This document shows positions 8,809 to 59,851 of a stretch of DNA of 64,000 nt, piece after piece. Within the stretch, counting starts at the first letter, position 1. Each line of letters begins with the position of its first letter. The stretch is from Candidatus Dormiibacterota bacterium (GTDB lineage Bacteria > Chloroflexota > Dormibacteria > Aeolococcales > Aeolococcaceae). Position numbers and translations under genes: made by a program. Under the pieces are notes generated by a model. The model was not told where the DNA came from and ran no database searches. It was given only the letters and a program-made list of their open reading frames with translations. Location of the stretch: assembly GCA_963718525.1 (NCBI GenBank), contig OY970355.1, positions 576,001 through 640,000 on the forward strand. Reading direction: 5' to 3'.

Positions 8809-10716
8809 TCAGACGTACGTGAACTTGTGACTCTTCGCCGATATTCCGCCTGGCGAGTGAACGACCACGCTCACGCTCCCTGCCGCATGTGCTGGGCTCG
8901 TCGCTGTGATCTCCGTGTCAGAGACGACGTGAAAGCTCGCCGCCTTACCCGCGAAGGTGACCAGCGTTGCCCCGGTCAAATTGCTGCCCGTGATGGTGAC
9001 GAAAGTGCCACCCGCTGCCGGACCGCTGGTCGGACTGATCGTCTTGACAATCGGGGCCGTGCCCCCGGTGGTATACGTGAACTGGTCCGACGTGCTGGTG
9101 GCGGACGTGCCGCTCCCCGTCGTCACGCGGACATCGACCGTGCCGCTGCCGGCCGGGCTGGTCGACGTTATCTCCGTGTTCGAGACAGGGGTGAATGCCG
9201 CCGCGGTGCCTCCGAATGTGACCGAAGTGGCACCGCTCAAGTTGAGCCCGCTGATGGTCACGGCGGTTCCCCCAGCCGGTGGCCCGCTACTCGGGCTGAC
9301 GCCGGAGACGACAGGAGACGTTCCGAGGGCGAGGATATAGAGGTTACCGTCGACGCCGGCGTCGAACACCTCACCGGCCGACACCGCCGGCGAGGCTGTG
9401 ATCTCGGTCGTCGTCGAACCGATGTTGAACGCCGTCAGCGATGACCCATTCGAGACCCGGTAGGCGTCGATATTGCCCCCCTTGTCAGGGCGAAGGACGA
9501 CCTGGTTCCCTGAGCCTCCGGACACCACCGGAGAGGCGCGAGAATGCGCTGGCGAGGCGGCTGTCCGCCAAATCAGCGTCGTGGTTCCGGTGCCTGTGGC
9601 CGTCGCACTTACGGCGTACACCCACTTGCAGAAGTTGAAGAGAACCATCGTGCCTACGAGCGCAGTTCCCGAGACGGGGTCGCTACTGCAATTCACCGTG
9701 CTCAGATCAAAGTCCCAATACAGCGCGCCCGTGGTGAAATCGAGCGCGTACTCGTGCTGGTCCTTGCCCATCACATAGACAGCGCCGTCGGTGATGCCAT
9801 TGCCACCGGGCAGCGAAATCGTCGGAGCTGCGCCGACATCCGAGTCAGCGCCCACCGCGGTTTGGAAACGCCACACCATGGCGCCGGTCGCAGCGTTGAG
9901 ACCGTACACGGAGTCATCCGGTTGGTTGCTGCCGAAGACCAGGAGCTGGCGCCCGAGCCTATCGGTTCCGAGCGCGGGCGACGACCAGCTTCCGCCGTCG
10001 GCGCCGTGGTTGGTGTTGTTCCAACTGTTGAACATCCAACGCTCGGTGCAAGCCGCACCCGCACTGTTGCCGACACCGTAGAGCGCCCATTCGTGACCCG
10101 CGTTTCGGGCTTCACTCTTTCCAGTGTCGCCGAAGAAGACCGTGGGACCGGTGCTGTCGATGTCCTCAACGAGCGGGGACGCCTCGATGCGACCACCGGT
10201 GTTGAAGGTGCAATCCAGTGCACCTGTCGTGGCATCGAAGGCATACAGGTTGAAGTCCTCACTCCCGAAGTACACCGTATTGTCAAATACTGTCGGCGAG
10301 GAGTACGCATCTTGGGGGAGCGGCTTCTGCCAGAGAATCGCACCCGTGGCCGCATTCACGGCTGCGACGGAGGGCGCCCCCGACGTCACAACGTAGACGA
10401 CGTTCTCGTTGAGAGTCGTGTTGTAGGCCACCGCCGGTGACGAGAGGATGAAGCCGCCGAGGGCCACCTTGTGTTTCAGGGTGAATGCGTCCCAACTCGA
10501 AGCACTGACCGTCGTGTCCGGCGACACGCTGGTATGGGTCGCGTTGTACCCAAGCATCGGGTAGTCGGTCCCCGTGCTCGCGTGCGCAACGATAGGCCGT
10601 GCAGCGCCGAGAGCCCCAACCACGACCGCGGCGACAAGCCCGAAGCCGATTATTGCGTGACGCTCTCTGGCGGGCGTGGTAAACCCAAGCGCCCCTGAAA
10701 GTGCCCCCATGCTCAT
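8809..10716 (-). CDS. Secreted PQQ-like (BamB-type) beta-propeller with two IPT/TIG domains
   Basis: Signal-like N-terminus, repeated SSPAV and DATTG..W motifs, C-terminal VSPSSGPPAGGTAVTISG x2; start placed at ATG after AAGGGG. Confidence 0.85.
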   Translation of the reverse strand: MSMGALSGALGFTTPARERHAIIGFGLVAAVVVGALGAARPIVAHASTGTDYPMLGYNATHTSVSPDTTVSASSWDAFTLKHKVALGGFILSSPAVAYNTTLNENVVYVVTSGAPSVAAVNAATGAILWQKPLPQDAYSSPTVFDNTVYFGSEDFNLYAFDATTGALDCTFNTGGRIEASPLVEDIDSTGPTVFFGDTGKSEARNAGHEWALYGVGNSAGAACTERWMFNSWNNTNHGADGGSWSSPALGTDRLGRQLLVFGSNQPDDSVYGLNAATGAMVWRFQTAVGADSDVGAAPTISLPGGNGITDGAVYVMGKDQHEYALDFTTGALYWDFDLSTVNCSSDPVSGTALVGTMVLFNFCKWVYAVSATATGTGTTTLIWRTAASPAHSRASPVVSGGSGNQVVLRPDKGGNIDAYRVSNGSSLTAFNIGSTTTEITASPAVSAGEVFDAGVDGNLYILALGTSPVVSGVSPSSGPPAGGTAVTISGLNLSGATSVTFGGTAAAFTPVSNTEITSTSPAGSGTVDVRVTTGSGTSATSTSDQFTYTTGGTAPIVKTISPTSGPAAGGTFVTITGSNLTGATLVTFAGKAASFHVVSDTEITATSPAHAAGSVSVVVHSPGGISAKSHKFTYV

Positions 10717-10919
10717 TCCCCCTTTGAACGCGTCCGACCCGAGTCCCGCGGACACCGAGGTCGCTGGCACGACTCTAGCACCCTGGGTCAGGAGACGCAA
10801 TTGGCCACATTGGTTCCTTTGCGGGGCGCTCAGGTCTATCGCTCGCGGCTCCTCGCCGGCGACCCCCCGGATGCGCTACGCTTCAGGTCGCATTTCGCGC
10901 GTTGGGGAGACGGAAGGGG

Positions 10920-12254
10920 TTGAAACCGCGTCGTACGAGCCTTATGGCAGCGATTTGGTGCGTCGCTGGGTTGCTCATTTCGTTCTCGAGTACGGCGGCG
11001 GCCTCGACGCCCGGCGACTGGAGCATGTTCCACGGCGACCCGCTGCACAGCGGCGTTTCGCCTGACACCACGATCAGCACGTCGCATTCCACGCTCGCGG
11101 TGCGGTGGTCGCACACGATCGACGGCTCGCCTATCTACGGCTCGCCCGTGGTCGTGTACAACACCGTCCTCAGCGAGAATCTCGTGTACGAGGTGAGCGT
11201 CGGCGGCACGATGGAAGCGATGGATGCGACCAGCGGTGCGCAGGTGTGGACGGCGTCTGTCGGGTCTGGAGCCGTCGACTCCCCTGCAGTCGACTCCAAC
11301 ACTCTCTACATCGGCAGTGACGGCGGCCTGCTCTCTGCGCTGGATGCAGCCACCGGAGCCGTCGACTGCACGTTCCAGCTGCCGATCCTGAGCCCGGAGA
11401 CGGCCCCGGGCCGCATCGAGTCGTCTCCGGTGGTGGGTCACGACAGCAGTGGGCCCATCGTGTATTTCGGCGACACTGGGCAGTCCGAGTCAATCAACCA
11501 CGGTCGCGAATGGGCCGTCTACGGGTTCGGCAACACCAACGGCAATTGCGTCCAAAAATGGGTGCACGACCTCGGTACCTCGTCCAAGAGCAAGCATTCC
11601 GGGACGTGGTCACCGCCGGCCCTGGTCATGGATTCGACCGGGCGCACCCTCGTTGTGTTCGGAACGGGCCAGCCCGATGACGCCGTCTACGCGCTGGACA
11701 CCGCCACCGGTGCGCAGGTCTGGCGCTTCCAGACCACCAAGAACTTCTCTGACGCGGACGTCGGCGCGGGGCCAACCATCAGCGCTCCCGGTGTCAATGG
11801 CGATGCCGATGGGCTCGTCTACATCGATGGCAAGGACCGAATCGAGTACGCCATCGACCTGCTCACGGGCACGCAGCTCTGGGACTTCGACATGGGGGCC
11901 GATGCCAACGACAGGACGAACTCCGTGTCGTGCGCTGCGCTCGTGGGGGACATCGTCGTGGTGGCGTACGCCGACTATGTCTACGAGTTCAACGCCACGA
12001 CGGGAGCGAAAATCTTCCGGTCGGTTGCCATGTCGGGAAACGTCCTGGGTTCGGTGATCGTCTCGGGGGCTCCAGGAAGCCAGGTTGTCGTCGTCGGCGA
12101 TCTGACGGGCAGGGTGTACACATTCCAGTTCAGCAACCTGCAAGATCTCGCAGCCCTGAGGTTGGCCAAGACCAAACTGGCAGCTTCCATCGCGATCTCC
12201 GACGGCATGGCCTATGTCGCCGATGAGAACGGGATCGTGTACGGCCTCGGCTGA
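10920..12254 (+). CDS. Secreted PQQ-like beta-propeller
   Basis: Signal peptide, DWSMFHGDPLHSG, repeated ALDAATG..W; start codon uncertain. Confidence 0.85.
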   Translation: MKPRRTSLMAAIWCVAGLLISFSSTAAASTPGDWSMFHGDPLHSGVSPDTTISTSHSTLAVRWSHTIDGSPIYGSPVVVYNTVLSENLVYEVSVGGTMEAMDATSGAQVWTASVGSGAVDSPAVDSNTLYIGSDGGLLSALDAATGAVDCTFQLPILSPETAPGRIESSPVVGHDSSGPIVYFGDTGQSESINHGREWAVYGFGNTNGNCVQKWVHDLGTSSKSKHSGTWSPPALVMDSTGRTLVVFGTGQPDDAVYALDTATGAQVWRFQTTKNFSDADVGAGPTISAPGVNGDADGLVYIDGKDRIEYAIDLLTGTQLWDFDMGADANDRTNSVSCAALVGDIVVVAYADYVYEFNATTGAKIFRSVAMSGNVLGSVIVSGAPGSQVVVVGDLTGRVYTFQFSNLQDLAALRLAKTKLAASIAISDGMAYVADENGIVYGLG

Positions 12255-30944: not shown

Positions 30945-31586
30945 TCAAATCAGTCCCTGGCGCGCCGCGCTTATGGCAGCCTCCACCCGATTGCGGACGT
31001 CGAGCTTCGCGAAGATGTCCTGCACATGGCTCTTCACGGTGTTCTCGCTGAGGTGCACACGTTTGGCGATCTCCTTGTTGGAGTAGCCGTCGCTGATCAA
31101 CCGGAGGATTTGAGTTTGCCGCTCATTGAGCACTGGAGGATTGGCGGCTCCCGCGGTCGAGTTGGCGTCTCCGCGAACTCGATCCATGAGACGTTGGGCA
31201 ATCGTCGGCGAGACGACCGCCTCACCACGATAGACGGTGCGGATTGACTGCTTCAGGTCAAAGCGTTCGACGTCCTTGATGACGTACCCACGTGCACCGG
31301 CGCGGATGCTCTCTTCGACGAGCACGTCGTCGGAGTAGACGGTGAGGATGATCACCCTGACGTCGGGGTGCGTGATGCCGAGAATGCGGCACGCCTCGGG
31401 CCCCGAGATGCCCGGAAGACGGGCATCGAGGAGCACGATGTCGGGTCGGGTTTCAGAAACGAAGTCGGCGATGTCTTGGGCAGAATCTCGCTCGCCGACA
31501 ATCTCGAAGTCGGGATCATCGGCCAGCATTGCCCGAACCCCCTCGCGGACAACCTCGTGGTCGTCGATGATCGCGACGCGGATCAT
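30945..31586 (-). CDS. NarL/FixJ-type response regulator
   Basis: IIDDHEVVREG, LLDARLP, GYVIK, LuxR HTH LSENTVKSHV; ATGA overlap with kinase. Confidence 0.93.
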   Translation of the reverse strand: MIRVAIIDDHEVVREGVRAMLADDPDFEIVGERDSAQDIADFVSETRPDIVLLDARLPGISGPEACRILGITHPDVRVIILTVYSDDVLVEESIRAGARGYVIKDVERFDLKQSIRTVYRGEAVVSPTIAQRLMDRVRGDANSTAGAANPPVLNERQTQILRLISDGYSNKEIAKRVHLSENTVKSHVQDIFAKLDVRNRVEAAISAARQGLI

Positions 31587-32797
31587 CGCGTCGTCTTCGG
31601 TACGGGCACCGAGATCCTGACCATGAGTCCACAATCCTCACCATTCTCGATCGTCAGCGTTCCTCCGAGACCTTCAATCCTGCGTCGCATGTCGAAGAGC
31701 CCGAAATGGCGCTGACGTCCAGACGCCTCATTGTCGCCGGGCGTGGGCATACCGACGCCGTCGTCCTGCACGACGATCTCCACGTTATCGGATTCGTATC
31801 GCATGTTGATAAACACGCTCTGCGCATGGGCGTGACGACCGATATTGGTGAGTGCTTCTCTCACCACGGCCACCAGATCGTCCTGCAAGGTCTCGACCAT
31901 CGAATGGGGGATCCCCTGAACGATGAGGTCGACATCGAGGTTGTGTTCACGTCCGACACTGCGCAGCAGCGATTGGATCGTGGCGGTCAGATCCGGCTCG
32001 CCGTCAGGCGGTGCGCCGAGCGTGAAGATGGCGCTGCGCAGCTCGTCAAGTGCGCCGGCCGCCATCCGCCGGATGTCCAACACGCGGCGAGCGTTCTCCG
32101 AGTCTAGATCCCGCTCGAGCAGCGCATTGACGCTGAGCCCAAGGCTGAATAGGCTCTGTCCAACGCTGTCGTGAAGCCCGGACGCGATGCGGGCGCGGTC
32201 CTGTGCGAGCAGGCTCTCGCGTTCCGCGTGTCCGAGGCGTTGTTGGAGGTCCTCGAGCCCCGCAATCATCTCGCGCTGCCGCTCGTACAGGCGGCCGTTG
32301 TCGATCGCAACTGCTACCTGATTGGCGAAGGTGGCGAGCAGGCGTTCCTCATCATCGCCATATCCACCCAGGCGATTCCCGGCACCGATCATGCCGATGA
32401 CAGTGGCGCCGACCATGAGCGGTACTCCCAGAAAGGTGCGGACCTCGGGATGACCGGGTGGCGTCCCGACGTGGTTCGGGTCCGAGGCAACGTCATTGGA
32501 GATGTACGGGCGCTGATCGATGATGGTCACGCCGAAGACGCTGCGGCGCACAGGCATGACGCGGTAGCGGTCGTGAAAGGTCGGATCGGAAGCGAAGAAG
32601 CCCTTGACCGCGACGATGTCCATGTATTCGCCGCTTGTGCTGACGAGATCGATGAAGCCGAGCTCGGATCTCGTCAGCTCCAGGCAATATGCAAGCGCCC
32701 GTTCATAGATCTCAGGCAACTCCCGCAGGGACGCGATCTCGACGGAAATCGAGTGCAGCGAATTGAGCTGATCGCGGAAGGTCTGATCGGTTTGCAA
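31583..32797 (-). CDS. GAF-domain HisKA_3 sensor histidine kinase
   Basis: GTPPGHPEVRTFLGVP (GAF), RIASGLHDSVGQ, EALTNIGRHA, DDGVG, FGL. Confidence 0.92.
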   Translation of the reverse strand: MQTDQTFRDQLNSLHSISVEIASLRELPEIYERALAYCLELTRSELGFIDLVSTSGEYMDIVAVKGFFASDPTFHDRYRVMPVRRSVFGVTIIDQRPYISNDVASDPNHVGTPPGHPEVRTFLGVPLMVGATVIGMIGAGNRLGGYGDDEERLLATFANQVAVAIDNGRLYERQREMIAGLEDLQQRLGHAERESLLAQDRARIASGLHDSVGQSLFSLGLSVNALLERDLDSENARRVLDIRRMAAGALDELRSAIFTLGAPPDGEPDLTATIQSLLRSVGREHNLDVDLIVQGIPHSMVETLQDDLVAVVREALTNIGRHAHAQSVFINMRYESDNVEIVVQDDGVGMPTPGDNEASGRQRHFGLFDMRRRIEGLGGTLTIENGEDCGLMVRISVPVPKTTR

Positions 32798-32922
32798 CGA
32801 ACCCCTTGCCGTGGTTACGACGGCTTGGTGATCCTAGCACCGGCCACGTTGCCCCGTCAGGACGGGCCGGGTCCGCAATCCGTGTCTCGCCAATGCCACT
32901 GTGGATGCGGGACGGTAACGAA

Positions 32923-50894: not shown

Positions 50895-51824
50895 TCAGCG
50901 CCGAGGTTTGGTTTGACCGTCCAGAGCTCTTGCCGCTGAGGTCAGCCTTCGAGAATGTCCAATCAAACCCAGCACGCGCTGTTGCACCGGCCGAGCGGGA
51001 AGCGCGCGCAGGATGCGCAGGGAGACCTCCTCGACCGAGCCGATGCCGTCGATCTCCGCGACCAGCCCTTGCTTGCGGTAGTGGTCGAGCACCGGCAACG
51101 TCTGCTCCAGGTAGACCGCAATACGACGCTGGGCGGTCTCCGGCCGGTCGTCCTCGCGCACGATGAGTTCCCTGCCATCCGCCACGCAGCTCAACGGTCG
51201 GGGTTGGTCCGGCTCGAACCCGTAGCTTCGTCCGCAGCCCGGGCAGGTCAACCTGGTCGTGACACGCCGGATCAGCTCAGCCTCGGGCACGTTCAGGTAC
51301 AGGACGCGGTCGAAGTCAGTCGCCATCGACGCCGCCAGCGCATCGAGCGCTCGGGCTTGCGGCACGGTGCGGGGGAAGCCGTCGAATAGGAAGCCGTCCC
51401 GGCGGTCGCTCCCCATTAGGCGCTCCCTGATGATGTCGATCATCAGCGCGTCCGGAACCAAGTCGCCGCGCTGCATGTAGGCTTGGACGCGCAGCCCCAG
51501 CTCGGTCCGCTCAGCCAGCTCGGCGCGCAGGATGTTCCCCGTCGCGATCGCGGGAATGTCGAGCCGCGAGGCTAAAAGGTCTGCCTGCGTCCCCTTACCA
51601 CTGGCCGGCGCCCCGAGGAGCAGGAGATTCAGCCGTGGACTGTCTCCGCGGACAAATGGTCGTGCTCGCTCCATCGGCAAGTCGAATTCAGTGGCACGAA
51701 TACCGGTATTGGGGAGTCCGGGCGCATGGGGGCTGAGGGCGGCTTCGACGACCAACGGGGCTGGGCTCGGTCGTTCCTCGACGATGATTGCCGGCTTCAC
51801 CCGGTGCACGACGGCAGCTTTCAT
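50895..51824 (-). CDS. adk: Adenylate kinase with N-terminal extension
   Basis: LLGAPASGKGTQA, GDLVPD, FDGFPRT, LID CPGC..CVAD, REDD. Confidence 0.9.
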   Translation of the reverse strand: MKAAVVHRVKPAIIVEERPSPAPLVVEAALSPHAPGLPNTGIRATEFDLPMERARPFVRGDSPRLNLLLLGAPASGKGTQADLLASRLDIPAIATGNILRAELAERTELGLRVQAYMQRGDLVPDALMIDIIRERLMGSDRRDGFLFDGFPRTVPQARALDALAASMATDFDRVLYLNVPEAELIRRVTTRLTCPGCGRSYGFEPDQPRPLSCVADGRELIVREDDRPETAQRRIAVYLEQTLPVLDHYRKQGLVAEIDGIGSVEEVSLRILRALPARPVQQRVLGLIGHSRRLTSAARALDGQTKPRR

Positions 51825-52040: not shown

Positions 52041-53219
52041 CTAACTGCGTTCGATCACCATGGCGATGCCCTGGCCACCGCCGATGCACATCGCCGCAAT
52101 GCCCAATTCCACGTCGCGGCGCGCCATCTCGTAAAGGAGCGTGGTGAGAATGCGTGTCCCGCTGGCACCGATCGGATGGCCCAGCGCAATGGCGCCGCCG
52201 TTGACATTGACCCTGTCCTCAGGGACGGCTAGCTCCCGACATACCGCCACCGACTGAGCGGCGAAGGCCTCGTTGAGCTCGAAGAGGTCGACGTCACGAA
52301 CACCGACGCCGGCCTTGTCCATAGCCTTCCGCGCCGCCGGTACCGGCCCGATCCCCATGATGCGGGGCTCCACGCCGGCGCTGGCGTAACTGCGGATCCG
52401 GGCCAGCGGACTCAACCCCTGGGCTTTGGCGCGTGAGGCGCTCATCACCACCATGGCCGCTGCGCCGTCGTTGATACCGCTTGCGTTGCCGGCCGTGACG
52501 GTACCGTCCTTTGTGAAGGCAGAGCGCAAGCCCGACAGGACATCCAGAGTGGTGGCGGGACGCGGATGCTCATCTGTGTCGACGAGAACCGTCTCCTTGC
52601 GACGGGCTACCGGCACAGGAACGATCTCGTCCTTGAACCGGCCCGCTTTGATCGCGTCGCCGGCCTTCTGCTGCGAGGCCAGCGCAAAGCCATCCTGATC
52701 GGCCCGGCTCACCTCCCATTCTTTGGCCACGTTCTCTGCGGTAATGCCCATATGGCAGTCGGTGAAGGCGCACCAGAGTCCGTCGCGGATGATCACGTCC
52801 ACCAGCTGCCCATGGCCGAGGCGATAGCCGTAACGCCCACTGTCCATCAGGTATGGCGCGCGCGACATGTTCTCCATGCCACCCGCCACCATGCACTCGG
52901 CATCGCCGAGGCGGATCGCCTGAGCGGCTAACGCCACCGTCTTCAATCCAGAGCCGCACACCTTGTTGACGGTCATGGCTGGGACGGCCGTCGACAGATT
53001 GGCCCCGAGCGCCGCCTGCCGCGCGGGGTTCTGGCCGAGGCCTGCCTGTAGTACGTTCCCCATGAGGAGCTCCTCGACCTGGTCGGCGTCGATGCCGGCG
53101 CGTCGGATGGCCTCCTCCACGACGATGGCACCGAGTGTCGTCGCCGGAACCTCAACAAATATGCCCCCCACTGTGCCCACCGGCGTCCGGACGGCGCTGA
53201 CGATGACGGCCTCTTCCAC
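52041..53219 (-). CDS. phaA: Acetyl-CoA acetyltransferase (beta-ketothiolase)
   Basis: [30 protein letters not shown]; lies in the PHA cluster. Confidence 0.92.
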
Positions 53220-53505
53220 CCTGGTTGCCCTACTTGTAACGGACGGTCACGAACGGTCGCTCTCTCGCGGCGCGCCGACGCGCGAAGCGCCTCACTTCCA
53301 CGCACGATCCTACGCCGATTTCTCCCGACGTCTATCAAGGCGCCGGAGCGGACTCCAGCTGCAACCGCGGAGCCCGGTCAGCTTGATCAGCGTTGCCGCG
53401 GTGAGCAGCGGACGCATTCCCTGGGCCACGGTCTGCTCGATGGCCTCACGTCACGAGCACCAAGTTGGCACGTGGGCCGCGGGGCGGCCACAGAAGGTTG
53501 AGGTC

Positions 53506-53537
53506 AGGAGCGCGCAGCGTCGCGCTGGCGCTCCTGC
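53506..53537 (-). terminator. Hairpin after phasin-like gene
   Basis: CAGGAGCGCGCAGCG-tcg-CGCTGGCGCTCCTG. Confidence 0.5.
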
Positions 53538-53542
53538 CGGAG

Positions 53543-53824
53543 TCAGTTGGAGGCGACGGATCCCAGCTGCTTCAGAGTGGCGATCCCGAACTCGTACTGC
53601 CACTCGACAAACTTGGTCACGACGGCGAAGTTGCGATCCACCACGGTGTCGATGGCCGGAATTAGCTCCTCAGAGTTGGGAAGCGCGAACACGCTGAGCG
53701 GAACCAACACGGAGGTGATGCTCTTGAGGACCTCCGTAGCTGCAAGCTTGATCTCAGTCGTGCGTTGGAGGCCTTCCGCCACTGCAGCGTTGGCGGTGCG
53801 TGTGTAATCGGCGTAGTCGGTCAT
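53543..53824 (-). CDS. Small helical orphan, candidate phasin / granule protein
   Basis: 93 aa, amphipathic-looking (VVDRNFAVVTKFVEWQYEFG), GAGG RBS, consensus-like promoter, PHA cluster context. Confidence 0.65.
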   Translation of the reverse strand: MTDYADYTRTANAAVAEGLQRTTEIKLAATEVLKSITSVLVPLSVFALPNSEELIPAIDTVVDRNFAVVTKFVEWQYEFGIATLKQLGSVASN

Positions 53825-53877
53825 GACTGTTTCCTCGTGACCTCCGGGGCCCGTTGGGCTCCTACTGGAGAGGCTGT

Positions 53878-53910
53878 GCTAAGTCTACCAAGCGGACGCT
53901 AGGTTGTCAA
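53878..53910 (-). promoter_or_regulatory. Sigma70 promoter with overlapping palindromic operator
   Basis: Minus strand TTGACA-17-TAGACT; GCTTGG-TAGA-CTTAGC at 53878-53893 covers the -10. Confidence 0.75.
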
Positions 53911-54028
53911 CCCGAGGCTGCTCATGTCTCCAGCGATACCACCAAAGGCTGGTGCTCCATGGGTTCGAACGGACGGCTCGGAGGTGTCCTCGGGCTGGCC
54001 CGAAGGCCAACCGGTCGGTGAGGCAGAG

Positions 54029-54427
54029 CTAGCGGGACGCGACAGCCGCCAGTTCCTTCCAGGCGGTCTCGAGCGCCGAAAGATTCTCGCAACCGAGCAC
54101 GAGACTCGTGTCAGTCGCCAGGTACGCCACGGTCAGGTTGATGCCGGCGTCGGCGAGGCGACGCGTGACATTACCAAGCATGCCGGGGTGATTCTCAACG
54201 CGCTCAACGATCACTTCCGCCTCGCGGGTGACCTTGTAGCCGACCTTGGTGATGGCGCGGCCAGTCGCGGCTCTGTCTGTGGTCAGCAGGTGGAAGATAA
54301 CGCTCCCATTCTCCTCGACCGCAGACAGGCCCTCGATATTGATCTTCTCGCGCCCCAGCTCCTCCGCGAGGGTCGCAAGACTGCCCTTGGCGTGCGGGAC
54401 GACGATGGTGAAGTCATATGCGTACAT
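54029..54427 (-). CDS. Tandem ACT-domain protein
   Basis: PHAKGSLATLAEELGREKINI and ENHPGMLGNVTRRLADAGINL. Confidence 0.85.
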   Translation of the reverse strand: MYAYDFTIVVPHAKGSLATLAEELGREKINIEGLSAVEENGSVIFHLLTTDRAATGRAITKVGYKVTREAEVIVERVENHPGMLGNVTRRLADAGINLTVAYLATDTSLVLGCENLSALETAWKELAAVASR

Positions 54428-54554
54428 GACTGTCCTCCTGTGTCGGGCGCCGAGTAGCTCAGCTGGCCTGCGAACCACCGTGCGCGTGCTGTCATACAAA
54501 ACGCAACCGGTGCGAACCGCGCATTGTCATCGGGCGACGCATATGGGTCGCGAT

Positions 54555-54583
54555 GTGACATTCGGTCCCGTGGCGAATGTCAC
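54555..54583. promoter_or_regulatory. Perfect 10-bp inverted repeat / paired DosR-like boxes in a divergent promoter
   Basis: GTGACATTCG-N9-CGAATGTCAC. Confidence 0.6.
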
Positions 54584-54652
54584 TCGCCTCTGGTGGTGCG
54601 GACACAAGCGCGTCGATGCTGTCAGGAAACCGGCAGACACCGAAGGAGAACA

Positions 54653-56182
54653 GTGAGGAGCGCGACACGCACCCTTGGCGCCGATGCGACACTGCCGCTG
54701 TTGATCCAGGGCGGCATGGGTGTGGCAGTCTCCAACCATCGCCTCGCCCGCGCTGTGGCCATGACGGGTCATCTCGGCGTCGTCTCCGGGACGGCTATTG
54801 ATCTCGTGCTCGTGCGGCGGCTCCAGGACGGTGATCCCGATGGCGAGATGCGAAACGCGATTGCGCAATTTCCAGTGACCGCCATCGCAGAGCAGGTAAT
54901 GGAGCGCTACTTCCTTCCTGACGGGCGCCGCCAGCGTCCCTATCGCAACATCTCGATGCACTCACATCGCGACAAGCACGTGTCTCAAGACCTGCTCGTG
55001 CTCGCCGCGTTCGTCGAGGTGATGCTCGCCAAGCGCGGGCACGATGGACACATCGGCATCAACCTGCTGACCAAGGTGCAGATCCCTACAGTGCCGACGC
55101 TGTTCGGCGCGATGCTCGCGTCTGTCGACTACGTGCTCATGGGAGCGGGAATCCCCCGCGAGATACCAGGCATTCTCGACCGTCTCGCTGCGATGCTGGC
55201 GGTGGAGACACGGCTCGACGTCATCGGCGCCGCTGCCGCCGACACCATTCCCCATCTCCGCTTCGATCCCAATCGCTTCGATGTCAGCACTGCACCGCGC
55301 CGTCCGGCGTTCCTGCCAATCGTGTCGTCGCATACCCTGGCGACCGTCTTGGCCCGCAAGGCGAACGGCTCGGTCGAGGGCTTCATCGTCGAGGCACCGA
55401 CGGCGGGTGGGCACAACGCGCCGCCACGGGGCACGCCAACCTATGACGCAATCGGACAGCCGTGCTACGGCGAGCGCGACCACGTCGATCTCGCAGCCAT
55501 GCGCGCCCTGGGCCTGCCCTTCTGGCTGGCGGGCGGCAGGGACACACCGGAACGCGTTCGAGACGCGCTCGCAGTTGGTGCAACCGGCGTCCAGGTGGGC
55601 ACGCTCTTCGCCTTCTGCCGTGAATCGGGAATCGCGCCTGCGTTGCGCCGCGCCGTTCTCGACACCGTGGAGAGCGGGCGCGAATTCGTGCTCACGTCGT
55701 CACGCGCGTCGTCGACCGGGTATCCGTTCAAGGTGGCCTCGGTCCCCGGGACCCTGTCTGAGCGGGGGGTCTACACGGCCCGGACGCGCGTCTGCGACCT
55801 GGGCTACCTGCGCGAGGCATATGTGAAGTCAGGGGCCGGCGTTGGCTACCGATGCCCCGGCGAGCCGGTTGGCGATTATGTCGCCAAGGGTGGCGATGCT
55901 TCCGCCACCGTTGACCGCATGTGTCTGTGCAACGGCCTCGCGGCCACGGTCGGGCTCGGCCAGGTGCGGGTCGCCGGTCTTGAACCTGGCGTGATCACGA
56001 GCGGTGACGGCCTCGCCGCCGTACGGACGATGTTGATTGACGATGACGATTACTCCGCCGCCGATGTTGTCACTCACCTGCTGGGCGGCCTTCGGGGCGC
56101 GTCGGCGACCTCTGACGGACCTCATCTTGAGGCGACGAAAGACGGGTCACACTTGGAGGCGGCGCATACACGGAGTGTCTGA
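54653..56182 (+). CDS. Nitronate monooxygenase / FabK-like FMN enzyme with C-terminal Cys cluster
   Basis: LIQGGMGV, MGAGIP, AGGHN, GVQVGT; RVCDLG, YRCPGE, MCLCNGL; GTG after AAGGAG. Confidence 0.85.
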   Translation: MRSATRTLGADATLPLLIQGGMGVAVSNHRLARAVAMTGHLGVVSGTAIDLVLVRRLQDGDPDGEMRNAIAQFPVTAIAEQVMERYFLPDGRRQRPYRNISMHSHRDKHVSQDLLVLAAFVEVMLAKRGHDGHIGINLLTKVQIPTVPTLFGAMLASVDYVLMGAGIPREIPGILDRLAAMLAVETRLDVIGAAAADTIPHLRFDPNRFDVSTAPRRPAFLPIVSSHTLATVLARKANGSVEGFIVEAPTAGGHNAPPRGTPTYDAIGQPCYGERDHVDLAAMRALGLPFWLAGGRDTPERVRDALAVGATGVQVGTLFAFCRESGIAPALRRAVLDTVESGREFVLTSSRASSTGYPFKVASVPGTLSERGVYTARTRVCDLGYLREAYVKSGAGVGYRCPGEPVGDYVAKGGDASATVDRMCLCNGLAATVGLGQVRVAGLEPGVITSGDGLAAVRTMLIDDDDYSAADVVTHLLGGLRGASATSDGPHLEATKDGSHLEAAHTRSV

Positions 56183-56257
56183 TCGTTCTGCGGTCGTCGA
56201 CAGACCATCGCTCAGGCCCGGCGGGAGGGCCTAACCCTGGACTACGATGGTCGGACT

Positions 56258-57043
56258 ATGGCTGTCGTTGAGCCGGCTGCCAGCGATGCAGCGACGCCGC
56301 GCCTCTTCTCCGGAAAAGTGGCCATCGTCACCGGGGGTTCCCGCGGTATCGGTGCGGCGATCACCCGAGAGCTCATACGCCATGGCGCGCACGTGGCGGC
56401 CGGGTTCAACCGCGACGCCGAGTCCGCTGCGGCCTTGCGCGACGAGCTCTCCGGTCTCGGTGGCTCGATCTCGGTGCATCAGGGCAACGTTGGTGTCCCT
56501 GCGGACTGTACCCGCGTGGTCGACGAGGTCTTGACCGCATACGGTCAGGTCGACTTCCTGGTCAACAATGCCGGCATCACCGTTGACAAGACCGTCCGGA
56601 AGATGAGCGTCGAGGACTGGCATGCGGTGATGCGGATCAACATCTCGGGCGCGTTCTACATGATGAAGGCCGTTCTGGACCACATGCTCGAACGAGGCAA
56701 CGGGCGGATCGTCAATCTGAGCTCGGTCATCGGCCAGACCGGAAATATCGGGCAGGCCAACTACGCTGCCTCAAAGGCGGCGCTCTACGAACTCACCCAA
56801 AGCCTTGCGCTAGAAACGGCTCGCAAAGGGATCACGGTCAATTGCGTGGCCCCGGGATTCATCGCAACCGAGATGGTGGCCAAGATCCCGCAGCCCATCC
56901 TCGACGGCATCATCGAGAAGGTACCGATCCGGCGGCTCGGCCAGCCCGACGAGGTGGCTCGCGTGGTCCGCTTCCTTCTCGAGGATGAGTCGTCGTATAT
57001 CACCGGTGCGATGTACGCCGTGAACGGCGGCCTGTTCATGTGA
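56258..57043 (+). CDS. phaB: Acetoacetyl-CoA reductase (SDR)
   Basis: TGGSRGIG, NNAGIT, GQANYAASK, PGFIATEM; directly before phaC. Confidence 0.88.
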   Translation: MAVVEPAASDAATPRLFSGKVAIVTGGSRGIGAAITRELIRHGAHVAAGFNRDAESAAALRDELSGLGGSISVHQGNVGVPADCTRVVDEVLTAYGQVDFLVNNAGITVDKTVRKMSVEDWHAVMRINISGAFYMMKAVLDHMLERGNGRIVNLSSVIGQTGNIGQANYAASKAALYELTQSLALETARKGITVNCVAPGFIATEMVAKIPQPILDGIIEKVPIRRLGQPDEVARVVRFLLEDESSYITGAMYAVNGGLFM

Positions 57044-57050
57044 TCGGCTC

Positions 57051-58811
57051 GTGAGCAACGATGCCGGCGAGGACACCGCCTATGAGGCCCTGCTGGCCAA
57101 GGTAGACCAGAGCGATTTCGGAGGAGCGTTCCGCAGCGTGTTCCTCGGTGACGCGATACGTCACCCGCTGCACGTCGCGAAGGCCGGCCTGGATCTCTCG
57201 GCCGGGCAGGCCGCGGTAGCGGCGCGTGCTGCTCAGCGCGCATTGGGCCGCGGAAAGGCTGATCCGGTTGCTCCGGAGGACAACCGCTTTGCGGACCGGA
57301 CCTGGCAAGCGAACCCTGCCTTCCGGACCCTGGCCGAAAGTTATCTGAGCACCGTGCAGTGGGCGCGGCAGCTGGTCGAGACGTCTCACGCTCCCGCCGT
57401 CCAACGCGAAAAGGCGCGGTTCGCACTCGATCTCATGCTCGATGCGCTCGCTCCGACCAATGTGCCGTGGATGAATCCCGCCGTCTTGAAGGAGACATTC
57501 GAAACGGGTGGGCAGAGCCTCATCGCAGGCGCGAGCAACTTCGTCGACGATTTGCTTCACAACGGGGGACGGCCTCGACAGGTCGACGCCACATCATTCA
57601 GTCTCGGCAAAAACCTCGCGGCGACACCTGGGCGCGTGGTGATGCGCAACGCGCTCATCGAGTTGCTGATGTACAAGCCGCAAACCGATCTGGTCCACGC
57701 GCAACCGATCATGTGCAGCCCACCCTGGATCAACAAGTACTACATCATGGATCTGGCACCCGGGCGATCCTTCATCGAGTACGCGGTGCAGCACGGCTTC
57801 ACTGTGTTCTGCATCAGCTATCGGAACCCCGACGCGTCAATGCGGGAAGTCAGCTGGGACGACTATCTGCAGCTCGGGCTGATGGCGGCGCTCGACCAGG
57901 CGAGCATAATCACCGGCTCACCGGTTGTGAACATCGTCGGCCTCTGTCTCGGGGGAACAATGTCGACGATCGGCCTGGCCCACCTTGCGGCTAAGGGCAA
58001 GGCCGAACGAGTGGGCTGGATGACCGTCACCAACACGCTCGTCGACTTCAGCATCCCCGGCAATCTCGGCGTCTTCGCCGACCGCAAGAGCGTGGCACGC
58101 CTCGAAAAGAACATGAAGCAGCGTGGCTATCTGGAGGCGTCAGCGATGGCGCAGACGTTCGACTGGCTGCGCGGCAACGACCTGGTCTGGAATTACGTCA
58201 TCAACAACTGGTACATGGGCAAGACCCCACCAGCATTCGATCTCCTTGCGTGGAATGGGGACAGCACGAACATGCCGGCGGCGATGCACACGCAATACCT
58301 TCGAGCCTGCTACGTCGACAACCTGCTGATTCGCCCCGGTGCGTTTCAGATCGCCGGAACCCCGATCGATCTCAGGAAGATCAAGCAGCCCATGTACGTG
58401 CTCGGCGCCGAGAACGACCACATCGCCCCCTGGAAGGGATCGTATCTGACGACCCAACACGTCGGCGGCGAGGTGCGCTACACGCTGACGTCGAGCGGGC
58501 ATGTTGCCGGGATCGTCAATCCGCCCGGCAACCCGAAGGCCGCGTTCTGGACTCGCCCGCATGCGAATCGCGGTATCGATGCCGAGGCATGGCGAGCGGG
58601 AGCAGAACGTGTGAGCGGGAGTTGGTGGGACGACTGGGTTGCGTGGGCTGCCGAAAGGTCGGGGGAACTCGTTGCGCCGCCACGAGTTCCGCTCGGAGAC
58701 CCGGCACCCGGGAGCTACGCCAAGGGCGAGACGGCTCGACTCTTCGAAGCTCGATCCTCGGCACGCCGGTCCCAGCGTGCTCGAACTGGCGCAGCAGCGA
58801 AGAGTTCCTGA
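57051..58811 (+). CDS. phaC: Polyhydroxyalkanoate synthase (single-subunit, class I/II type)
   Basis: DNRF, PPWINKYYIMDL, lipase box GLCLGG, WNGD, NDHIAPW, SGHVAG, GSWW. Confidence 0.95.
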   Translation: MSNDAGEDTAYEALLAKVDQSDFGGAFRSVFLGDAIRHPLHVAKAGLDLSAGQAAVAARAAQRALGRGKADPVAPEDNRFADRTWQANPAFRTLAESYLSTVQWARQLVETSHAPAVQREKARFALDLMLDALAPTNVPWMNPAVLKETFETGGQSLIAGASNFVDDLLHNGGRPRQVDATSFSLGKNLAATPGRVVMRNALIELLMYKPQTDLVHAQPIMCSPPWINKYYIMDLAPGRSFIEYAVQHGFTVFCISYRNPDASMREVSWDDYLQLGLMAALDQASIITGSPVVNIVGLCLGGTMSTIGLAHLAAKGKAERVGWMTVTNTLVDFSIPGNLGVFADRKSVARLEKNMKQRGYLEASAMAQTFDWLRGNDLVWNYVINNWYMGKTPPAFDLLAWNGDSTNMPAAMHTQYLRACYVDNLLIRPGAFQIAGTPIDLRKIKQPMYVLGAENDHIAPWKGSYLTTQHVGGEVRYTLTSSGHVAGIVNPPGNPKAAFWTRPHANRGIDAEAWRAGAERVSGSWWDDWVAWAAERSGELVAPPRVPLGDPAPGSYAKGETARLFEARSSARRSQRARTGAAAKSS

Positions 58812-58821
58812 CCGACGATCC

Positions 58822-59277
58822 TCAGTGGGACGTCCGCTTCGCCCTGGCGGGCGCCGCCTTGGAGGGCACGGCTTTGGTGGCCGTCTTGCGCGCCGGGCGT
58901 GACGGGGTCGGGCGATCCGCTGACGGCTGCTGAGTGGCGATCAAGCCTCGATACACCTGGATCAATGCCTGCTTGGCTTCCTGAGTGAGCCGACCGTCCA
59001 CCCGGATGGCGTCCTCGACAGTCAGGATGGGGCGTTCCACCGAGTTATCGAGTAGGCCAGCCTCCCGGTACAGGGTCTCGGCGGACATGTCAAGCGCGTC
59101 CGCGATCCCCTTGAGCACTTGCGCTGATGGCGTATACACGCCGCGTTCGATCTGACTGAGGTAAGGATTCGACACCTTGGCCAGCCCCGCGAGCTGGCGC
59201 ATCGAGAGTGACATCAGCTCCCGCTGCGTGCGGATGAAGTCTCCTACTGACTTGAACGGTGGCGTGGGCTCGGGCAT
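58822..59277 (-). CDS. XRE-family regulator (Rv0474/MLDSR-like) with Lys/Ala/Pro-rich tail
   Basis: GDFIRTQRE..SMRQLA...VSNPYLSQIERG...SAETLY..AGLL..VEDAI..D..LT...KQAL; tail PARKTATKAVPSKAAPARAKR; TACCAT 6 nt before ATG. Confidence 0.88.
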   Translation of the reverse strand: MPEPTPPFKSVGDFIRTQRELMSLSMRQLAGLAKVSNPYLSQIERGVYTPSAQVLKGIADALDMSAETLYREAGLLDNSVERPILTVEDAIRVDGRLTQEAKQALIQVYRGLIATQQPSADRPTPSRPARKTATKAVPSKAAPARAKRTSH

Positions 59278-59291
59278 GAGCCAATGGTAGC

Positions 59292-59351
59292 GCTTGGGGA
59301 GCCAAGCTGATGGAGGGTTGACATAGGCAGCACCTGCTTGGTATACTAAGC
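59292..59351. promoter_or_regulatory. Divergent promoter with two GCTTGG-N4-CYAAGC operators
   Basis: GCTTGG-GGAG-CCAAGC 59292-59307; TTGACA 59318-59323, 18 nt, TGn-TATACT 59342-59347 covered by GCTTGG-TATA-CTAAGC 59336-59351. Confidence 0.8.
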
Positions 59352-59386
59352 ACTCCACAACAGCCTCGCTACAAAGGAGACCACCC

Positions 59387-59659
59387 ATGACCGACAACCA
59401 GACGTATCTGACCGACCTGCAGAAGCAGTTCCTGACTGCGCTCCAGAAGGTGGGCGAGGTTCAGGCAAAGCTCTACGAGGCAGTTCGCGATATGCCGGCA
59501 ACTCTCGAGAGTGGCCAGATGACTCCCGCCGAGATGGTGGAGAAGTCGTTCGACTTCGCGGCTCAGGTGCTCAACACCCAGCGCGATATGACCCTTCAGC
59601 TCATCAACGCCGCTGGTGGAACACCGACCAAGACCCGGACGGCGAAGCAAACCGCGTAA
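59387..59659 (+). CDS. Small helical orphan, candidate phasin / granule protein
   Basis: 90 aa, PAEMVEKSFDFAAQVLNTQRDMT amphipathic helix, basic tail; AAGGAG RBS. Confidence 0.75.
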   Translation: MTDNQTYLTDLQKQFLTALQKVGEVQAKLYEAVRDMPATLESGQMTPAEMVEKSFDFAAQVLNTQRDMTLQLINAAGGTPTKTRTAKQTA

Positions 59660-59662
59660 ACC

Positions 59663-59698
59663 CTCGATACGGGTCGAGGCGACTCGACCCGTATCGAG
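59663..59698 (+). terminator. Perfect 16-bp hairpin with GCGA tetraloop
   Basis: CTCGATACGGGTCGAG-gcga-CTCGACCCGTATCGAG. Confidence 0.75.
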
Positions 59699-59709
59699 TC
59701 CAAGCCACG

Positions 59710-59851
59710 CTTCCCAATGCTGAGACGCTGATTCCCCGCGATCGACAGGGTGGTTGATCGCAACTTCGGCATCGTGCTCAAGGTCGTCGAGTGGCAGCAC
59801 GACATCGCGACTTCGGCTCTCGGTCACCTGGGATCCGCCGCGTCAAACTGA
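59710..59851 (+). pseudogene. Frameshifted 3' relic of the 53543-53824 phasin-like gene, inverted
   Basis: LPNAETLIP(+1 C)AIDRVVDRNFGIVLKVVEWQHDIATSALGHLGSAASN* versus LPNSEELIPAIDTVVDRNFAVVTKFVEWQYEFGIATLKQLGSVASN*. Confidence 0.85.

Follow-up and report, generated by a model that had tools for sequence, protein, structure and literature searches.

What regulates the proteins that coat the storage granules of a bacterium in whose genome no PhaR can be recognised, and which proteins are they? The question is raised by a 64-kb stretch of DNA, called the window throughout, that was taken from a genome of 3.34 Mb and 66% G+C in one contig (positions 576001-640000), and whose closest database proteins carry the names Candidatus Dormibacteria or Dormiibacterota. 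The locus concerned is the polyhydroxyalkanoate (PHA) storage module of a Candidatus Dormibacteria genome, in which phaA, phaB and phaC stand together with a gene for an XRE-family regulator and two genes for proteins of about 90 amino acids (aa), here called orphan 1 and orphan 2. This gene content had been proposed in a first-pass annotation made from the sequence alone; Pfam confirmed it and left both orphans without a family. The genes are the following:

52041-53219, minus strand: phaA, acetyl-CoA acetyltransferase (thiolase); Pfam Thiolase_N, E 1.9e-102, and Thiolase_C, E 3.9e-51
53543-53824, minus strand: orphan 1, phasin-like small protein 1, 93 aa; without a Pfam or NCBIfam family
56258-57043, plus strand: phaB, acetoacetyl-CoA reductase of the short-chain dehydrogenase/reductase type; Pfam adh_short_C2, E 1.5e-61
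57051-58811, plus strand: phaC, PHA synthase (class I-like); Pfam PhaC_N, E 6.8e-58, plus alpha/beta hydrolase
58822-59277, minus strand: XRE-family regulator, 151 aa; Pfam HTH_3, E 1e-11
59387-59659, plus strand: orphan 2, phasin-like small protein 2, 90 aa, a predicted helical hairpin; without a Pfam or NCBIfam family

The phaC product contains both Pfam domains and scores 555.5 bits on the class I PHA synthase model TIGR01838, against a cut-off of 622.65. We read the locus, with a probability of roughly 0.6, as a repressor circuit of the MLDSR type, a type known from lipid droplets, that acts on PHA-granule coat proteins.

The first part of the evidence is distribution. It had been supposed that the XRE gene and the orphans belong with phaC, and their co-occurrence and synteny agree. 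Of 42 genomes of the genus, 28 have an orthologous phaC, which in one case is truncated where the contig stops. Orphan 2 is present in 27 of these 28 and in none of the 14 phaC-negative genomes, bar one weak match at 2.3e-4, and the orphan-1 family occurs in 18 of the 42, all phaC-positive. The order phaC, XRE, orphan 2 is kept in all 26 loci of the genus. Across the class, an even set of 151 Dormibacteria genomes contains phaC in 19, the small-protein family in 17 and an XRE orthologue in 16. The family is found in 14 of the 19 phaC-positive versus 3 of the 132 phaC-negative genomes and the XRE orthologue (E<=1e-20) in 15 of 19 versus 1 of 132. There is one such orthologue per genome, always at a PHA or phasin-like locus.

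Gene order changes between genera. In G280 and G348, the XRE gene is followed by a family gene 2 kb from phaC, and in G053 by a family gene 15 kb from a 40%-identical phaC. In G268, phaC1 is divergent from a family gene with phaB, and phaC2 is divergent from XRE; in G363, XRE is divergent from phaB-phaC-phaA. Both operator types described below persist in the other genera despite the changed order, and where XRE and a family gene share one operon there, the pair has an internal promoter.

The small proteins themselves have few relatives with names. The close homologues of orphan 1 (94 proteins) and of orphan 2 (120 proteins), all more than about 55% identical, are without exception unnamed or hypothetical; some of those of orphan 2 stand under the name Candidatus Dormibacteria. 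Direct comparison of the orphan-1 and orphan-2 profiles is weak (44%). A search with the orphan-2 profile against 1.84 billion representatives returned about 40 full-length relatives of 80-120 aa (alignment A3, 42 members), and to this extended family orphan 1 aligns at 95.7% in hhalign (E 9.5e-9); on this profile evidence, orphans 1 and 2 are paralogues within a single family. That family has a third intact member 1.4 Mb away, a protein of 95 aa with 86% identity to orphan 1, whose gene has the same promoter, 5' untranslated region (UTR) and terminator repeat as orphan 1. In this genome the family is thus represented by orphan 1, orphan 2, the copy at 2.056 Mb and a decayed fourth gene.

The first-pass annotation had called the orphans an uncharacterised phasin family. 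What stands of this claim is that the family is unannotated and leans faintly towards Phasin_2 (PF09361), which 14 of the 42 sequences in A3 match at E<=0.1 (lowest E 0.0018); what does not stand is membership, as all matches fall below the gathering cut-off of 24.9 bits (the two printed bit scores are 16.4 and 17.2). No other family is matched by more than two of the 42, and no non-granule family was matched by either orphan in the hidden Markov model (HMM) searches. One member from Elarobacter aligned to positions 23-97 of the 100 in the Phasin_2 profile at E 0.011. The nearest named protein-atlas clusters are linked to PHA only (Phasin_2, PHA_synth_III_E, PHB_acc and PhaP_Bmeg), at scores below 0.9 that make them leads only. 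Like Phasin_2 proteins, the orphans are small, predicted to be all-helical and encoded beside phaC; the AlphaFold2 model of orphan 2 (pLDDT 70) has helices at residues 2-34 and 47-77. Similarities to designed helical bundles and apolipophorin-III (E 0.029, family profile against PDB sequences) were driven by composition and were not used.

Residues 38-52 of orphan 1 (window 53650-53700) form a near-invariant, hydrophobic, proline-containing centre, TSVLVPLSVFxLPNSE, that orphan 2 lacks and that might serve for insertion into a surface. To our knowledge, such a proline-containing hydrophobic centre (VLVPLSVFxLPNSE) is not familiar from phasins. Several distant family members end in Lys/Ala-rich tails.

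Several observations weigh against taking the family as granule-coat proteins. The likeness to Phasin_2 is wholly sub-threshold, and the window's own orphans have no match to it at E<=0.1; neither orphan matched a Pfam or NCBIfam family, and no phasin model scored. Comparison of A3 with one Phasin_2 protein (from G313) gave 0.5% in hhalign. The AlphaFold2 model of orphan 1 is a single long helix with a pLDDT of 52 and is unusable. The orphan-2 model had no Foldseek match in the PDB at E<=0.001, and the wide VIA-align search found generic helical hairpins only (best Z 8.0). The amphipathic moment does not rise above that of shuffled sequences for orphan 1, orphan 2 or the XRE protein. In the class sample, 5 of the 19 phaC-positive genomes are without a family match, and G083, which is 93% complete, carries a family gene divergent from XRE with no phaC found. 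The sampled genomes are also kin rather than independent, and the co-occurrence rests on about five genera.

Since the Phasin_2 signal stays below threshold, the orphans themselves have no match and the models are uninformative, the family is best called phasin-like, by association and faint similarity, rather than a member of Phasin_2. It would at best be a very distant relative of that family, possibly derived from it.

Would the small proteins then be something other than a coat? The XRE protein might regulate them through the palindromes while they act in stress or dormancy, or in association with the nucleoid, and are simply inherited and regulated together with carbon storage. The pair found without phaC in G083 and that at 15 kb from phaC in G053 would fit such a role, as would the absence of a phasin match for either orphan, the Lys/Ala-rich tails, which resemble the DNA-binding tails of HBHA or PhaF, and the third paralogue, which adjoins Crp-like and acetyl-CoA-hydrolase-like genes and not PHA genes. 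We nevertheless consider this unlikely, as the family is so unevenly divided between genomes with and without phaC (14/19 versus 3/132), is an immediate neighbour of phaC, phaB or phaA in several phyla and under several unrelated gene orders, and has its sub-threshold matches concentrated on Phasin_2. Moreover, the place of a conventional coat protein appears vacant: no canonical Phasin_2, Phasin or PHA_gran_rgn protein is found over cut-off in this genome, and no Phasin_2 over cut-off in five non-Dormibacteria genomes with XRE and a family gene.

The third paralogue (L001 9091-11449, genome 2055090-2057448) lies between genes for a Crp/Fnr-like regulator and an acetyl-CoA hydrolase/transferase-like protein. 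The latter gene is split over the overlapping frames 10153-10947 and 10679-11449 and may be frameshifted.

The second part of the evidence for an MLDSR-type circuit on coat-protein genes lies in the promoters. The near-identical orphan promoters, with a palindrome over both -10 boxes, and the third palindrome just upstream of the XRE -10 could be read in the sequence as the first-pass annotation had claimed:

53878-53910, minus strand: orphan-1 promoter and putative operators; -35 TTGACA at 53910-53905, CTAGC half-site at 53902-53898
53893-53878, minus strand: orphan-1 -10 palindrome GCTTGGTAGACTTAGC, which encloses the -10 TAGACT at 53887-53882
59284-59307, minus strand: XRE promoter core; -10 TACCAT at 59289-59284, perfect palindrome GCTTGG-N4-CCAAGC at 59292-59307
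59318-59351, plus strand: orphan-2 promoter and putative operators; -35 TTGACA at 59318-59323, AGC core at 59329-59331
59336-59351, plus strand: orphan-2 -10 palindrome GCTTGGTATACTAAGC, which encloses the -10 TATACT at 59342-59347

The orphan promoters are the two best sigma-70-like sites between 53400 and 60000, with 10 of 12 consensus positions for orphan 1 and 11 of 12 for orphan 2, and both have a TG-extended -10. The strong sigma-70 promoter of each family gene in this genome sits within two adjoining imperfect palindromes with the half-sites TGCTTG and CYWAGCA, which cover the -35 and the -10 respectively. The XRE promoter has a single palindrome that ends 2 nt 5' of its -10. That -10 lies only 6 nt before the ATG, which implies that the XRE mRNA is leaderless; the promoters of other genera suggest the same. 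Four soil data sets labelled RNA-Seq, which consist of contigs, are probably DNA and derive mostly from relatives.

These sites are rare. The pattern GCTTGG-N4-CYWAGC occurs at four distinct sites in the window (five strand matches), where 0.03 would be expected from shuffles, and the genome-wide scan found five distinct sites only. Four of the five lie at family or XRE promoters, namely those of the two orphans, of the XRE gene (59292-59307) and of the third paralogue at genome position 2056112; the fifth is at window position 32823. A position weight matrix (PWM) built from sites of the genus gives the four promoter sites scores of 33.4, 28.0, 25.2 and 17.5, and the next-ranked sites score 15.0 and 12.1.

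The copy at 32823-32838, GCTTGGTGATCCTAGC, lies 26 nt 5' of a gene for a GAF-domain histidine kinase (31583-32797, minus strand). It was considered as a further site of the regulon and is treated as a chance occurrence because of its low PWM score (12.1, against 17.5-33.4) and because the strict pattern has no counterpart there in the genus: none was found outside family and XRE promoters in the 41 other genomes except for a recurrent variant, the kinase locus itself being unchecked.

A different perfect palindrome, GCTTGGACCGCCAAGC, has a single copy in each of five genomes of the genus, one of them phaC-negative, and away from the PHA locus (G224 C156:1904, G213 C181:22519, G223 C42:14796, G221 C18:33393 and G209 C182:11415).

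The sites are also conserved. An alignment of the 115-123-bp intergenic region between XRE and orphan 2 from 25 species of the genus is invariant on the XRE side in GCTTGG (59292-59297) and CCA (59302-59304). On the orphan-2 side, it is invariant in GTTGACA (59317-59323), AGC (59329-59331) and, over the -10, GCTTGGTA (59336-59343), ACT (59345-59347) and AGC (59349-59351). Beyond these runs, only the ribosome-binding site and the start codons show no change, and the 5' UTR is variable. The orphan-2 -10 palindrome is kept in all 25 species, and the exact upstream GCTTGG-N4-CCAAGC in 14 of them. The stand-alone orphan-1-type genes of the genus have the exact -10 palindrome in 15 of 16 cases and one mismatch in the sixteenth. 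Genome by genome, the strict pattern is found in 27 of the 28 phaC-positive and 1 of the 14 phaC-negative genomes of the genus; in that lone genome, the site is the different, recurrent variant.

In other genera of the class, the family promoters carry GCTTGGTAnnCTWAGC over the -10, even where the gene lies co-directionally behind XRE. The XRE promoters of five other genera have nnTTGG-N4-CCAAGC 2-7 nt 5' of a -10 that ends 6 nt before the start codon (10 nt in G348). The same half-sites recur at two distinct places in promoters and go together with XRE, which speaks for a site bound by a protein and against a mere element of the promoter.

Before the nature of this site is weighed further, the known regulators of phasin genes have to be considered. 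In the PhaR-PhaP circuit of Cupriavidus and Paracoccus, a repressor controls a small regulon of coat-protein genes together with its own gene; the PhaR operators overlap the promoters, and the supply of coat protein is tied to the granule surface. The circuit proposed here would share all of these traits, namely the small regulon of coat genes and self, the promoter-overlapping operators and the granule-surface logic. It differs in its regulator, an XRE protein with HTH_3 that is unrelated to PhaR in fold and family, and in its operator sequence.

The first-pass annotation had noted that phaR is not recognisable, and indeed no PhaR domain (PF07879, PF05233; PHB_acc_N/PHB_acc) was found over cut-off at the locus or elsewhere in this genome, nor in G221, which belongs to the same genus, nor in G363. 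The XRE protein has no PHB_acc_N or PHB_acc domain either, its Pfam matches being of the HTH_3 type only. All four phaC-positive genomes of the class sample that are without XRE have PhaR. The notion that XRE and PhaR exclude each other was rejected, as G280, G348, G053 and G268, all from other genera, have both the XRE gene and a canonical PhaR. This coexistence speaks against the simplest form of the circuit: XRE is therefore not simply a replacement of PhaR. It may rather be an additional, phasin-dedicated regulator in general and is the only candidate regulator in the window's genus.

A precedent comes from Ralstonia eutropha. According to the accessible text of PMC11332829, PhaR is a phaP1/P3 regulator, and a promoter pull-down identified H16_B1672, an XRE-family protein that binds PphaP1 with a KD of about 175 nM. 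The likeness to the present case lies in an XRE-family repressor, here putative, on a phasin promoter; the difference is that H16_B1672 is not described there as encoded at a PHA locus or paired with a phasin gene (PMC11332829). No paper that connects an XRE regulator with actinobacterial or Dormibacteria phasins was found among the literature listings searched.

Could the palindromic flanks simply be promoter elements, such as the extended -10 and a discriminator, or the site of another factor, and not be bound by XRE at all? The left half of the palindrome does overlap the extended -10, its TG accounting for two of the conserved bases in GCTTGG, so that part of the conservation may reflect promoter function, and some motif-bearing genomes have a canonical PhaR. 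However, the half-sites form a palindrome elsewhere, between the -35 and the -10, at the XRE promoter in six genera; the strict pattern is missing in 13 of the 14 genomes of the genus without the PHA module; the XRE orthologue sits in the PHA module wherever it was looked for, and the motif travels with it across phyla; and G000, G221 and G363 have the motif or XRE but no PhaR. We regard this explanation as quite improbable.

The third part of the evidence for the MLDSR-type circuit is the regulator. Its homologues all start at the ATG at 59277 and not at an upstream TTG (alignment A4). The protein consists of a helix-turn-helix (HTH) region at residues ~10-75 (HTH_3 at 15-67), a conserved helical stretch from ~85 to 115 and, behind it, a basic tail that varies; this is the layout of MLDSR/Rv0474-type proteins, which have an N-terminal HTH, a short helical region and ~125-170 aa in total.

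The tail (residues ~115-151, window 58822-58950) is rich in Pro, Ala, Lys, Arg and Thr and ranges from ~25 to 70 residues among close relatives. It recalls the tails of histone H1, HBHA and PhaF.

The first-pass annotation's comparison with Rv0474 and MLDSR is supported by a positional equivalent in Nocardia tenerifensis (L164), whose XRE protein is 51% identical to that of the window over 102 aa (BLASTP, E 1e-31), an alignment that spans the HTH and the following helical region. The Nocardia gene is followed by that of a 223-aa helical protein ending in PAKKA-type repeats, which is of the HBHA/MLDS type. The label "MLDSR-like" refers to this equivalent rather than to RHA1_ro02105 or Rv0474 themselves. 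The same pair of XRE and HBHA-like genes is found in Amycolatopsis (two records), Streptomyces and Actinoalloteichus, and the five HBHA-type loci carry TTGCAAGCA-GRG-TGCTTGCAATAGYTAGCAC 5' of XRE, with the same half-sites and spacing. The partner proteins are another matter: between A3 and the five HBHA-like proteins (A5), hhalign gave 27%, which is no detectable homology.

MLDSR of Rhodococcus jostii RHA1 is, as far as the accessible text of PMC5504291 describes it, a 126-aa XRE-HTH protein encoded in the same operon as mlds. It binds two adjoining, partly palindromic motifs within 43 bp, represses itself and MLDS, at a high protein-to-DNA ratio, and is sequestered by lipid droplets (PMC5504291). 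By this account, the two systems have in common an XRE-HTH protein of ~125-170 aa whose gene adjoins that of a storage-body coat protein (a putative coat protein in our case), two adjoining partly palindromic motifs over about 40 bp at the promoter, known here from sequence layout, and a regulator that controls itself, as the palindrome at the XRE gene's own promoter suggests. They differ in that the partner here is a ~90-aa family and not an HBHA/MLDS/TadA-type protein, that the polymer is PHA, with phaABC alongside, and not triacylglycerol, and that the regulator gene is transcribed away from its target instead of sharing an operon with it, while the regulator may also control dispersed paralogues. 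A point on the other side is that the MLDSR box, as printed in the accessible text of that report, could not be mapped base for base onto the present sites.

A toxin-antitoxin-like or phage-derived pair unrelated to storage is very improbable: XRE-family proteins are common as antitoxins with small neighbours, and NCBIfam gives the XRE protein weak matches to HipB- and DicA-type models, but Pfam and NCBIfam show no toxin domain in either orphan, one regulator would serve several dispersed paralogues, no more than a single copy of the XRE orthologue (E<=1e-20) was found per genome, fixed at the PHA locus, and no mobile-element context was seen.

How far does the pairing of XRE with the small proteins extend? 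A scan with the XRE alignment, using one genome per species, matched at least 600 stretches, of which 597 were confirmed and the best 80 examined. Among these best 80 of 597, an A3-family gene is adjacent to XRE in 21 loci, an HMM match of A1 or A3 at E<=0.01 lies in the flank in 23, phaC is within 4 kb in 11 (one of them weak) and an HBHA-like gene adjoins XRE in 5. Other partners were also seen among the best 80: an unrelated ~183-aa neighbour in 22 loci and an unrelated neighbour of ~400 aa in 13. By the labels of the metagenome-assembled genomes (MAGs) as deposited, the loci with an A3 pair include Candidatus Elarobacter, Binataceae, Myxococcota, Nitriliruptorales, Acidimicrobiia and a Mycobacterium sp. 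MAG.

The loci with the ~183-aa protein, which is conserved (L104-L160), are mostly from Ilumatobacteraceae and Acidimicrobiia, and their XRE proteins are about 50% identical.

Records that carry the labels Eremiobacterota, Binatota, Myxococcota and Actinomycetota again show the pair of XRE and small protein as well as a two-palindrome promoter. The pattern TGCTWR-N4-6-YWAGC, with at most one mismatch, is found 5' of 17 of the 19 family genes outside Dormibacteria, compared with a mean of 0.47 and a maximum of 3 in shuffles and 52 of 2338 tiles from the same loci. In these promoters, adjoining palindromes enclose the -35 (TGCTTGACAtATCTAGCA type) and the -10 (TGCTTGGTATACTTAGCA type).

In the proposed MLDSR-type circuit, the role of granule coat would be filled by the unannotated family of ~90-110-aa helical proteins. 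A dimer of the XRE protein, or a pair of dimers, would bind the palindromes, occlude RNA polymerase and thereby repress the coat genes, and the single palindrome between the -35 and the -10 of the XRE promoter would provide for autorepression of the leaderless XRE mRNA. More speculatively, and by analogy with PhaR on polyhydroxybutyrate (PHB) and MLDSR on lipid droplets, the granule surface might titrate the repressor off the DNA, so that coat supply would track the granule surface.

A wider version of this reading is offered tentatively, as falling somewhat short of an even chance. MLDSR-family XRE proteins might be pan-phylum "storage-body surface sensors" that keep one two-palindrome promoter design and serve unrelated coat proteins, HBHA/MLDS in Mycobacteriales-type actinomycetes and the new PHA-granule phasin family elsewhere. 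The PHA version would then be that of Dormibacteria, Eremiobacterota, Binatota, Myxococcota and many Actinomycetota records, and XRE would be the sole phasin regulator in the window's genus, because PhaR is missing there.

The remaining features of the locus lie around and between the genes discussed so far:

53507-53534, minus strand: G+C-rich inverted repeat just 3' of the orphan-1 stop codon, a probable terminator stem read from the sequence
54029-54499, minus strand: context gene for an ACT-domain protein; Pfam ACT, E 2.8e-10
54524-56182, plus strand: context gene 5' of phaB for a nitronate-monooxygenase/FabK-like oxidoreductase; Pfam NMO, E 1.5e-15
59663-59698, plus strand: 16-bp stem with a GCGA tetraloop and no U-tract; dG -32.3 kcal/mol, z -7.1
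59699-59851, plus strand: relic of a second-subfamily paralogue ("orphan 1B"), 53% identical to residues 49-93, with one TGA

The inverted repeat at 53507-53534 recurs 3' of the third paralogue (L001), and the ACT-domain gene also adjoins orphan 1 in G221 (L038). The oxidoreductase matches a FabK-like NCBIfam model at E 1.1e-8, far under the cut-off, and its real start probably lies 3' of the listed TTG. Immediately 3' of phaA comes a gene (50895-51824, minus strand) for an adenylate-kinase-like protein that is extended by a long stretch at its N-terminus, and an adenylate-kinase-like reading frame also adjoins the XRE/phaBCA cluster of G363, from another genus (L086 1-600). The relic has lost its ribosome-binding site and about 45 codons and contains one frameshift; an intact 92-aa gene occupies its position in nine genomes of the genus. 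The stem that precedes it, with 16 bp and a GNRA loop, is kept after orphan 2 in nine relatives, where both arms have changed in step from GAG/CTC to GGG/CCC. These paired changes suggest a conserved RNA structure between two cistrons, probably an intercistronic stabiliser or attenuator.

The MLDSR/MLDS circuit is known; what would be new here is its pairing with an unannotated, possibly Phasin_2-derived partner family at a PHA locus. The circuit is compact, with a 151-aa protein, 40-bp putative operators and 90-aa targets, and its strong promoters, for which repression is putative, and small coat proteins could serve as parts for PHA engineering. If the reading is right, it names the missing granule-coat proteins and their regulator for the PHA-storing members of several mostly uncultivated soil phyla, in which these genes are at present annotated only as "hypothetical protein" and "XRE family regulator". 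A single family with one operator design would then include both MLDSR of lipid droplets and the regulator of PHA granules, joining two systems that have hitherto been studied apart.

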